From IMG/VR virus record IMGVR_UViG_3300032295_004069: a stretch of 17,352 nt of DNA; one strand, given 5' to 3'. Both the position numbers and the translations under genes were made by a program. The notes beneath the pieces are model-generated. The model searched no databases and was not told where the DNA came from. It saw nothing but the letters and a program-made list of their open reading frames with translations. The stretch is from a virus. Taxonomy: Duplodnaviria > Heunggongvirae > Uroviricota > Caudoviricetes. Shown one piece after another: positions 1,550 to 1,855 of this stretch; position 1 is the stretch's first letter, and every line of letters begins with the position of its first letter.

Positions 1550-1577
1550 AAAAAAGGGAGACACCGTCGTGTCTCCC
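1550..1577 (-). terminator. Intrinsic (Rho-independent) terminator
   Basis: Minus strand GGGAGACAC-GACG-GTGTCTCCC (perfect 9-bp stem) followed by TTTTTT. Confidence 0.9.
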
Positions 1578-1855
1578 AAATCTCCGTCGAGATAATTTTG
1601 GTCTACTTTTTTTGGACTAAGGGCTAATGACCGATAAACCCGTGGGAGTGGACAACTCCTGTTTTGATACATGTCTCAAAACATCCAAAAAAGACGTAGT
1701 TGTTAGTTTATTAAGGATAAAACTGGAATGACCTTTCCACTTAAACCTCCCGTGTTTTGATAAACCATCGTTTTCTAATTTATATAGCGGAGAAGAAATT
1801 AGGTTGGGTGAGTATGGGGAACCACCACATAAAAAACCATTCCGCTGTCCATTTG
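1550..1855 (-). ncRNA. Candidate ~300-nt structured non-coding RNA of unknown class
   Basis: Bounded by a consensus Bacteroidota promoter (1861-1892) and a strong terminator (1550-1577). No ORF longer than about 25 codons starts inside it. Several helices are visible by eye (see findings). Confidence 0.6.

Follow-up and report, generated by a model that had tools for sequence, protein, structure and literature searches.

Our analysis of a tailed-phage sequence (IMG/VR record IMGVR_UViG_3300032295_004069, Caudoviricetes; the window, i.e., the whole stretch of 17,352 nucleotides analysed) points to a structured RNA gene near one of its ends. On the minus strand, positions 1854-1550 very probably are a real stand-alone gene for a structured non-coding RNA (ncRNA), which we refer to as RNA-A. 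As far as sequence comparison reaches, the evidence supports RNA-A as an undescribed phage ncRNA that is made from a host-type promoter. Judged from the order of predicted elements, it is the third and last gene of an RNA island consisting of a hairpin RNA, a tRNA-Phe(GAA) and RNA-A. As the overall best explanation we regard it as likely that RNA-A is a stand-alone folded phage ncRNA and a member of this island; it would act in trans, and a role near tRNA-Phe or translation is a tentative proposal. The gene and its signals are the following:

1550-1854, minus strand: RNA-A, structured ncRNA gene of ~305 nt, spanning conserved 5' AAAUGGAC through the U tract of the terminator
1861-1892, minus strand: promoter P3, Bacteroidota type, TTTG (1892-1889), N20, TATCTTTG (1868-1861)
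1550-1577, minus strand: P11, intrinsic terminator, GGGAGACAC-GACG-GUGUCUCCC followed by U6, with a C-GACG-G loop

Homologues were collected by a pattern search with an invariant 21-nt stretch that forms the P2 hairpin of the RNA. They occur on 37 contigs of viral origin and on at least 120 from metagenomes, largely from lakes; the 92 distinct full-length versions among them fall into 61 clusters at the 97% identity level. The sequence-only reading of this stretch had placed a perfect host-type promoter at 1861-1892, and these coordinates were confirmed exactly. The Bacteroidota sigma-A consensus has a -33 TTTG and a -7 TAnnTTTG element at a spacing of ~19-21 nt, and the sequence 1892-1861 conforms to a promoter of this type. 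It is the last of three tandem TTTG-N20-TAnnTTTG promoters (2162-2131, 2061-2030 and 1892-1861, minus strand), each followed by one non-coding element. The motif TTTG-N17-23-TAnnTTT[GA] is kept immediately 5' of RNA-A in 52 of 58 representative homologues, where its spacing to the RNA 5' end appears fixed; the distance from the end of the -7 box to GGAC is 5-12 nt with a mode of 10. The other six representatives have no promoter motif but a tRNA fused to RNA-A, and the 5' end of RNA-A lies at an equal position whether it follows a promoter or a tRNA CCA.

At the 3' end, a terminator scan recovered the 9-bp terminator that had been proposed, a stem at 1577-1556 with six GC pairs, a 4-nt loop and U6. 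This stem is present in all 61 full-length members and 98.9% paired over the alignment, and it covaries, with double changes at seven of nine pairs. The minimum free energy fold of the flagged stretch was moderately more stable than its shuffles (z-score -2.32). The expected lack of a credible open reading frame (ORF) also held: none lies on the minus strand between 2162 and 1550, none is conserved, and the longest sense ORF has a median length of 24 aa. The 5' ATG is present in 41 of the 61 representatives and missing in 20, and indels break its frame. With ATG and frame not conserved and sense ORFs short, a protein-coding reading of RNA-A was rejected. The alternative of an attenuator leader carrying a 17-aa upstream ORF (uORF) failed on the same grounds, together with a downstream gene that differs between clades.

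Comparison with known RNA families was negative throughout; the sequence-only reading had already recognised no RNase P, tmRNA, SRP, T-box or group I signature. In a cmscan run, none of the 4227 models of Rfam 15 matched anywhere in the window at the gathering threshold, and at E<=10 over positions 1400-2250 only noise overlapped RNA-A (rncO, 20 bits vs 43; STnc290, 19 vs 60; RUF2, 22 vs 90). ARAGORN called neither a tRNA nor a transfer-messenger RNA (tmRNA) in the window. The GOLLD model (RF02032) found no match in the window; this search works, because the same model finds GOLLD elsewhere in the relatives G001 and G002, with 290-322 bits. RNA-A is unlike a tmRNA in that its 5' end pairs internally, in helices P1 and PKA, and not with the 3' end, in line with the silence of ARAGORN. 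It does not correspond to RNase P RNA either: Rfam gave no match, the helix order differs, and the 5' end closes locally at nt ~70. A string UGUCCAC...UUAUCGGUCA, which resembles the 3' region of E. coli M1 RNA, is not conserved in other clades. The T-box model (RF00230) had no match; a UGGU-type stretch lies 5' of the UUC stretch, and there is no covarying alternative to P10 and P11. Literature searches turned up no description of the RNA-A family.

Fold of RNA-A

Running RNAalifold on a MAFFT alignment recovered only 28 pairs because arms in length-variable regions were misaligned, and in the plain MAFFT alignment compensatory changes were visible in P1, P8, P10 and P11. We therefore used covariance model alignment and a register-free swap test. 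The covariance model R1 was built from the nested helices, and its 67 matches were realigned to give alignment A3. R1 scored 306.9 bits for window positions 1545-1854 and 184-310 bits for the 60 other representatives. In A3, 89.4% of cells pair, versus 79.5% after shuffling and 48-58% with partners displaced by 1-3 columns. Both members have changed in 49 of 68 pairs, and none of 500 shuffles attained any of these measures. In the swap test, the duplex energy of a sequence's own arm pair is compared with that of mismatched pairs from other sequences, with regions taken between fixed anchors. For P1, P3, P4, P5, P6, P7, P8, P9, Ha, PKB and PKC, 0 of 2000 permutations equalled the cognate pairing. 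The structure thus covaries strongly across the 61 sequence clusters, as the proposed check on homologues had asked.

Our comparison supports a fold of 11 nested helices with five or six additional pseudoknot or long-range helices. By the covariation seen, the 5' half is an H-type pseudoknot, in which P1 is crossed by P3, with the invariant P2 hairpin in the first loop. The 3' half, as predicted from the same alignment, is a multibranch domain with P6 enclosing P7, P8 and P9. Both halves are joined by putative long-range helices between GGAC and the P8 loop, the P2 loop and GGG, AGG and the P5 loop, GUCU and the P7 loop, and the P9 loop and GACC. The predicted molecule ends in two hairpins with identical, invariant C-GACG-G loops, the second of which is the terminator. 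From the 5' end, and all on the minus strand, the helices preceding P11 are:

PKA, GGAC 1850-1847 with GUCC 1653-1650 (P8 loop), minus: long-range pseudoknot, 100% paired
P1, AGCGGA 1846-1841 with UCCGCU 1791-1786, minus: 94.8% paired, double changes at 4 of 6 pairs
P2, 1806-1828, minus: hairpin G.GGUG/CACC.C with a near-invariant 12-nt loop GUUCCCCAUACU (1822-1811)
P3, AACC 1805-1802 with GGUU 1766-1763, minus: pseudoknot helix crossing P1, backed by the swap test
PKD, CCC 1819-1817 (P2 loop) with GGG 1751-1749, minus: 96% paired, nearly invariant
PKC, AGG 1748-1746 with CCU 1716-1714 (P5 loop), minus: contiguous with PKD, 95.6% paired
P4, 1725-1738, minus: hairpin GGAA/UUCC, double changes at 4 of 4 pairs
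P5, 1705-1724, minus: hairpin AGUUU/AAACU, double changes at 4 of 5 pairs
Ha, GUCU 1695-1692 with AGAC 1676-1673 (P7 loop), minus: pseudoknot enclosing the 5' strands of P6 and P7
P6, UUUUUGGA 1691-1684 with UCCAAAAA 1616-1609, minus: closes the 3' multibranch domain
P7, 1660-1683, minus: UGUUUUG/CAAAACA, double changes at 5 of 7 pairs
P8, 1645-1659, minus: hairpin GGAGU/ACUCC with loop UGUCC, double changes at 5 of 5 pairs, 90.7% of cells pair
P9, 1621-1641, minus: GGGUU/AGCCC, double changes at 5 of 5 pairs
PKB, GGUC 1632-1629 (P9 loop) with GACC 1603-1600, minus: pseudoknot with a strand 3' of P6
P10, 1580-1593, minus: hairpin AUCUC-GACG-GAGAU, 98.4% paired, double changes at three pairs, GACGG invariant

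Much of the 3' domain had been seen beforehand, and covariation backed helices CTTTTTTGGA/TCCAAAAAAAG (P6), TGTTTTGA/TCAAAACA (P7), GGAGT/ACTCC (P8), GGGTT/AGCCC (P9) and TGGAA/TTCCA (P4). It equally backed the two loop pairings suggested for the 5' end, namely GGAC with GUCC of the P8 loop (PKA) and AGCGGA with UCCGCU (P1). The conformational switch that had been derived from them is not supported, because the 5' end pairs with both hairpin loops simultaneously; the two pairings use adjacent, non-overlapping bases and co-exist. PKA is contiguous with P1, and both helices probably stack coaxially. In PKA the fourth pair changes between C:G (57 sequences), U:A (6) and U:G (3), and P1 occurs as AGAGAG/CUCUCU or AGAGGG/UCCUCU. 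P2 has an invariant GGUG/CACC stem and a covarying closing pair (GC 41, AU 11, UA 3).

The crossing helix P3 is replaced by GACCU/AGGUC, GUCG/CGAC, CGUCU/AGACG, ACCUUUA/UAAAGGU or GAGAUU/AAUCUU, and its cognate duplexes had -4.03 kcal/mol in the swap test versus -1.56 kcal/mol for mismatched pairs. Corresponding values were -4.42 versus -1.75 for P5 and -5.70 versus -3.34 for PKB, which varies as AUGAUU/AAUCAU, GGUGU/ACACC, UUGGA/UCCAA and GGAA/UUCC. Helix Ha is found as GCCU/AGGC, ACGUCU/AGACGU, AAGUCU/AGACUU, AGCCC/GGGCU and CAGGUCA/UGACUUG, and P6 as UUAGGUA/UACCUAA in one homologue (L105). PKC shows exchanges of A:U (47) against C:G (8) and of G:C (37) against A:U (10), with the variants GGCAGUU/ACUGU, AGGCC/GGCCU and GAAGUCA/UGACUU. 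For PKD the swap test was not significant; this helix finds support in an 11-bp extension in the L034 clade (UUUCCCAUACU/AGGUAUGGGAGG) and in a paralogue that has UUUUUACA/UGUAAAAA instead.

Two further helices of the sequence-only reading did not survive. The pairing TGGTTTAT/ATAAACTA is formed in only 46% of cases and reached 1848/2000 in the swap test; its arms belong elsewhere, namely to P3 (GGUU with AACC) and P5 (AAACU with AGUUU). For CTAATTT/AAATTAG the swap test gave 880/2000, and the 71% of pairing is due solely to invariant UUU/AAA. The motif TATCAAAACA..GG.AG does occur twice in the window, as had been remarked, but it is specific to its clade. GGGAGG as a mimic of the Shine-Dalgarno or anti-Shine-Dalgarno sequence was dropped, as the motif varies to GGGCAG or GGGCGG and is paired in PKC. 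We also dismissed C-GACG-G as a general terminator loop of the window, which has just four CGACGG sites, two of them inside RNA-A.

Distribution and the RNA island

Most carriers of RNA-A are T4-like phages from freshwater, ~320 kb in size and with promoters of the Bacteroidota type. IMG/VR contigs of 317-335 kb that were reached via neighbouring genes contain the RNA and the tRNA-like gene together, at 70-91% identity (blastn). One RNA-A copy each is encoded in the complete 321-kb genome G001, in which it is 90.5% identical to that of the window, and in the 326-kb genome G003. Both RNA-A and the tRNA-like gene are absent from the complete 336-kb genome G002 and from G004, a 217-kb record of 84% completeness; a weak R1 match in the latter (20 bits) is spurious and lies within a coding region. 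Among 185,579 prokaryote genomes no RNA-A was found, the four pattern matches being chance hits inside coding DNA of which none matches the covariance model. A blastn search against 50,697 GenBank phages matched only the tRNA part and a promoter-like stretch, and among these no cultured phage carries RNA-A.

In one clade (L159, L196, L178, L129 and L275) one or two diverged paralogues, which we call RNA-B type, stand ahead of the main RNA. They are ~225-260 nt long, score 54-75 bits and keep the same helix layout with different sequences; they are without the GACG hairpins, and each has its own promoter. L275 has a canonical tRNA-Phe called by ARAGORN and then three tandem RNA copies. The array and the other elements of the island in the window are:

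L275:2153-3237, minus strand: tandem array of tRNA-Phe, diverged paralogues and main RNA, each with a Bacteroidota-type promoter; likewise in L159, L196, L178 and L129
2131-2162, minus strand: promoter P1 for the hairpin RNA, TTTG-N20-TACATTTG
2081-2126, minus strand: hairpin RNA of 45 nt, first island gene, GAGUUUGAA-ACUUAYAGGNRAUGAAA-GAUAC-UCG-GUAUU-UUCAAAUUC
2030-2061, minus strand: promoter P2 for the tRNA-like gene, TTTG-N20-TATCTTTG, conserved
1932-2019, minus strand: tRNA-Phe(GAA)-like gene whose D loop carries an inserted 17-nt C(UUCG)G hairpin and whose 5' acceptor strand is longer by one base

The RNA had been called an orphan, which it is not: a tRNA-Phe-like gene precedes RNA-A on the same strand, 1-164 nt or 389-390 nt 5' of it, in 57 of 57 loci with enough flank. 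The copy in the window reaches 25 bits with the Rfam tRNA model (cut-off 29 bits) and is missed by ARAGORN; its homologues range up to the fully canonical tRNA-Phe of L275. An alignment of 45 tRNA versions showed a conserved anticodon and covariation in the D-loop insert and in the anticodon stem. Variants without the insert or without the extra acceptor base occur, and the relatives show every combination, with a GAA anticodon that is essentially constant across clades. G001 has an additional canonical tRNA-Phe in a 23-tRNA island 40 kb away, and the island of G003 has none.

In the fused clade (L034, L071, L025 and L112) there is no promoter spacer, and RNA-A begins directly after the encoded CCA of the tRNA, with the hairpin RNA 12 nt ahead of the tRNA. 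From this spacing it follows that hairpin, tRNA and RNA-A are one transcript there. The hairpin RNA itself gave 153 blastn matches with 63 distinct versions among the fetched loci. Its outer stem covaries, from GAA:UUC to GGA:UCC and from UUUG:CAAA to UUCG:CGAA, and no Rfam family matched at 2081-2126. A hammerhead or C/D-box look of its RAUGAAAG stretch was dropped, since the flanking bases vary and Rfam is silent.

Possible roles of RNA-A

The stand-alone trans-acting ncRNA that we prefer would be transcribed early by the host RNA polymerase. In most clades its own promoter would fix the 5' end; in one clade, cleavage at the 3' terminus of the fused tRNA would do so. The terminator would fix its 3' end. 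RNA-A may then work in trans in the form of a folded particle, with or without a protein, and neither as an antisense RNA nor as a leader. Its job could concern the co-inherited tRNA-Phe or translation, by analogy to what was proposed for the tRNA-island RNAs GOLLD and ROOL; that its function centres on either of these we put forward only tentatively.

A protein that might act together with RNA-A is encoded near the island:

3316-3603, plus strand: F0, 95-aa protein with a predicted type-II-KH-like fold, divergent from the RNA island

Of 39 RNA loci with >=2 kb of flank, 35 have F0 at a distance of no more than 3.5 kb. The RNA-positive genomes G001 and G003 encode F0, the RNA-negative G002 and G004 do not. 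No Pfam family matched F0. Its AlphaFold2 (AF2) model has a predicted local distance difference test score (pLDDT) of 87 and an alpha-beta-beta-alpha-alpha-beta topology, which fits type II KH. Best fold matches were the KH domains of Era, ERAL1 and RbfA (VIA-align Z 6.1-7.9). Foldseek gave E-values of 5e-4 to 2e-3 in afdb_swissprot and of ~5e-3 or weaker in PDB, with 29 Era and one RbfA among the top 30 Swiss-Prot model matches. The Era/ERAL1 KH domain that F0 matches is the one binding the 16S 3' end; the conserved loop of F0 is LGxxI, not GXXG. The syntenic F0 is the best candidate for a protein partner of RNA-A, as a lead rather than a finding.

Several observations weigh against a trans-acting RNA with a tRNA-related role. 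A discrete species of ~305 nt is inferred from promoter, terminator and conservation only, and tRNA and RNA might be inherited together because they belong to one transcription unit and not because they share a function. The screen for intermolecular covariation between tRNA and RNA was uninformative, as its outlier of z -4.6 stands beside positive outliers of z +4.25. In locus L274, a tRNA with the D-loop insert is followed by a GIY-YIG gene and no RNA-A. The fold scores of F0 are middling (Z 6-8, E ~1e-3) and shared with alpha-beta domains that do not bind RNA. Finally, 21 of 43 F0 loci have no RNA-A within 5 kb, for which reason F0 was rejected as a strict partner of RNA-A. The arrangement in L274 is:

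L274:3880-4046, minus strand: D-loop-insert tRNA and a GIY-YIG homing-endonuclease-like ORF in the place of RNA-A, with a partial tRNA copy just upstream

Because of this partial copy, L274 suggests replacement of the RNA by a mobile gene.

In a more specific form, RNA-A would be a dedicated partner of tRNA-Phe, possibly together with F0, that docks, cages or guards the co-transcribed tRNA. We consider this rather unlikely. Docking would proceed via the codon-like UUUCUUC and the UGGUG that is complementary to the tRNA 3' end, and might serve to direct phage translation or to keep the tRNA safe from tRNA-cutting host defences. If true, RNA-A would be the trans-acting equivalent, on phage genomes, of RNAs that read tRNAs, such as the T-box, and ornate tRNA-adjacent RNAs such as GOLLD and ROOL would gain a testable common logic. 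Taken as a T-box-like docking RNA, for which we see a low probability, RNA-A would read the GAA anticodon with the two Phe codons of UUUCUUC next to P1 and pair UGGUG in P2 with CACC(A). Equally improbable in our view is the effect attached to it, that the RNA senses, sequesters or protects tRNA-Phe, for example from anticodon nucleases of the host. In every clade the linked tRNA, canonical or odd, has a GAA anticodon, UUUCUUC and GGUG are invariant or nearly so, and GUGGUU is complementary to AACCAC of the tRNA. However, GGUG is stably paired with CACC of P2 in all sequences, L129 and L247 have no UUC at this site, both partners are invariant, and the tRNA-RNA screen was uninformative. The T-box model of Rfam was silent, the order of the elements is opposite to that of a T-box, and no terminator/antiterminator alternative was found. 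RNA-A does share with T-boxes a structured RNA of a few hundred nt with a terminator end and one tRNA identity, next to its Phe codons and UGGU-type stretch; it differs from them in having no regulated gene downstream and in being phage-borne in a Bacteroidota-type setting.

Another view holds that RNA-A self-assembles into an RNA-only particle like ROOL or GOLLD, with loops that multimerise into a cage or ring holding a tRNA or ribosomal parts. Its genomic habit is the same, phage-borne and adjoining a tRNA gene, and GOLLD is encoded in the closely related G001. Many invariant unpaired stretches without an intramolecular partner (AUACU, AUAAAUUAGAAA and the two GACG loops) and the tandem paralogues of one clade would also fit. 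At ~305 nt, however, RNA-A is far below ROOL (~580 nt) or GOLLD (~800 nt), and no palindromic kissing loop is evident, so that we give little credence to such a particle. RNA-A might also be a cis-acting element for downstream late genes: an attenuator, a leader of riboswitch type or an RNA for processive antitermination, which would govern read-through of P11 by the polymerase into the genes for Thr/Pro-linker proteins. It is co-directional with the downstream genes, with the next start codon 20-30 nt past the terminator, and family F1 of Thr/Pro-linker proteins is the most frequent one downstream. Yet the gene after the terminator varies by clade, F1 being the commonest besides F13, F10, F11, F28, F65 and F135, and hence RNA-A is not a leader. 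The strong terminator has an invariant loop, and alternative pairings with covariation were not found. Conservation does not extend to the uORF, and the paralogue RNA-B is without the terminator module and is followed by a promoter and RNA-A rather than by a gene. We regard a cis-acting role as quite improbable.

HDV-like and hatchet ribozymes cut at their own 5' edge, and RNA-A could be a ribozyme of this sort, which would release itself from the tRNA upstream by self-cleavage or processing and has its 5' end buried in a pseudoknot. In the fused clade the RNA starts immediately past the tRNA CCA, its 5' GGAC is locked in a long-range helix, and multiple pseudoknots are typical of ribozymes. 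On the other hand, no ribozyme family of Rfam matches and a candidate for a catalytic core did not emerge; RNA-A has a promoter of its own in most clades, which makes cleavage unneeded, and host RNase Z or RNase E could process the tRNA 3' end. This possibility appears very remote to us.

GOLLD and ROOL are the closest analogues of RNA-A. ROOL and GOLLD are phage RNAs that are encoded near tRNA islands and form RNA cages (PMC12286853). Like RNA-A, GOLLD (RF02032) and ROOL are phage-encoded, non-coding and rich in pseudoknots, and typically lie beside tRNA genes (PMC12286853). In contrast, RNA-A has no sequence or structure homology to them, with cmscan detecting neither GOLLD nor ROOL in the window; it is smaller (~305 nt vs ~580-800 nt), is tied to one tRNA (Phe, GAA) and has its own promoter and terminator. 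The comparison may be extended to other RNAs linked to tRNAs. RNAs C and D (species 1 and 2) of the tRNA gene cluster of phage T4 are stable, tRNA-sized RNAs of ~120-140 nt that are co-transcribed with and processed from tRNA precursors. They resemble RNA-A as small stable phage RNAs, whereas RNA-A is larger, multi-pseudoknotted and usually has its own promoter. MALAT1-mascRNA and the TMERs of MHV68 are eukaryotic or herpesviral tRNA-linked ncRNAs that are matured by tRNA-processing enzymes. Similarly, tRNA and ncRNA adjoin without a gap in the fused clade, so that the ncRNA end would be defined by processing of the tRNA end. Their tRNA-like part, however, is located 3' (MALAT1) or drives pol III, while the tRNA-Phe of RNA-A looks decoding-competent and is located 5'.

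Large, intricate bacterial and phage RNAs of unknown role are rare and have repeatedly led to new biology. The RNA-A family occurs widely in metagenomes from lakes and keeps to a single tRNA identity (Phe); with ~305 nt it is small enough for structure work and offers five or six covarying long-range helices. The tRNA-fused form, the tandem paralogues and the forms after canonical or odd tRNAs provide natural variants for dissection, so that it becomes directly testable why ornate phage RNAs adjoin tRNAs. The three tandem promoters would constitute an early RNA island in uncultivated jumbo phages, and they point to Bacteroidota hosts.

Neighbouring genes

Downstream of RNA-A, the genes at 1-789 and 958-1527 (minus strand) encode proteins with long Thr/Pro-rich linkers. 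These proteins are members of F1, a multi-copy family of high variability, and matched no Pfam entry. On the other side of the island, divergent from it, a small basic protein is encoded:

3145-3279, plus strand: very basic 44-aa protein (MAKAKGG...FGKRK...YRGQGR), divergent from the island, without a Pfam or PHROG family

This protein gave 281 tblastn matches with 127 distinct versions near the RNA island. Since the RNA-less G002 encodes it too, without a neighbouring tRNA, it was rejected as an RNA-specific partner. Positions 2134-2820 (plus strand) encode a DNA/RNA non-specific endonuclease (PF01223, E 2e-39) whose N-terminus is signal-peptide-like; it sits between the RNA island and the pair of basic protein and F0 in the clade of the window only. 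Many unrelated proteins of the window (ORF starts 2810-16296) begin with the same N-terminal peptide, for example MKYIITES.L or MRYIIKETQYKRLIE, which the N-terminus of F0 (RLIETYIN) faintly resembles.

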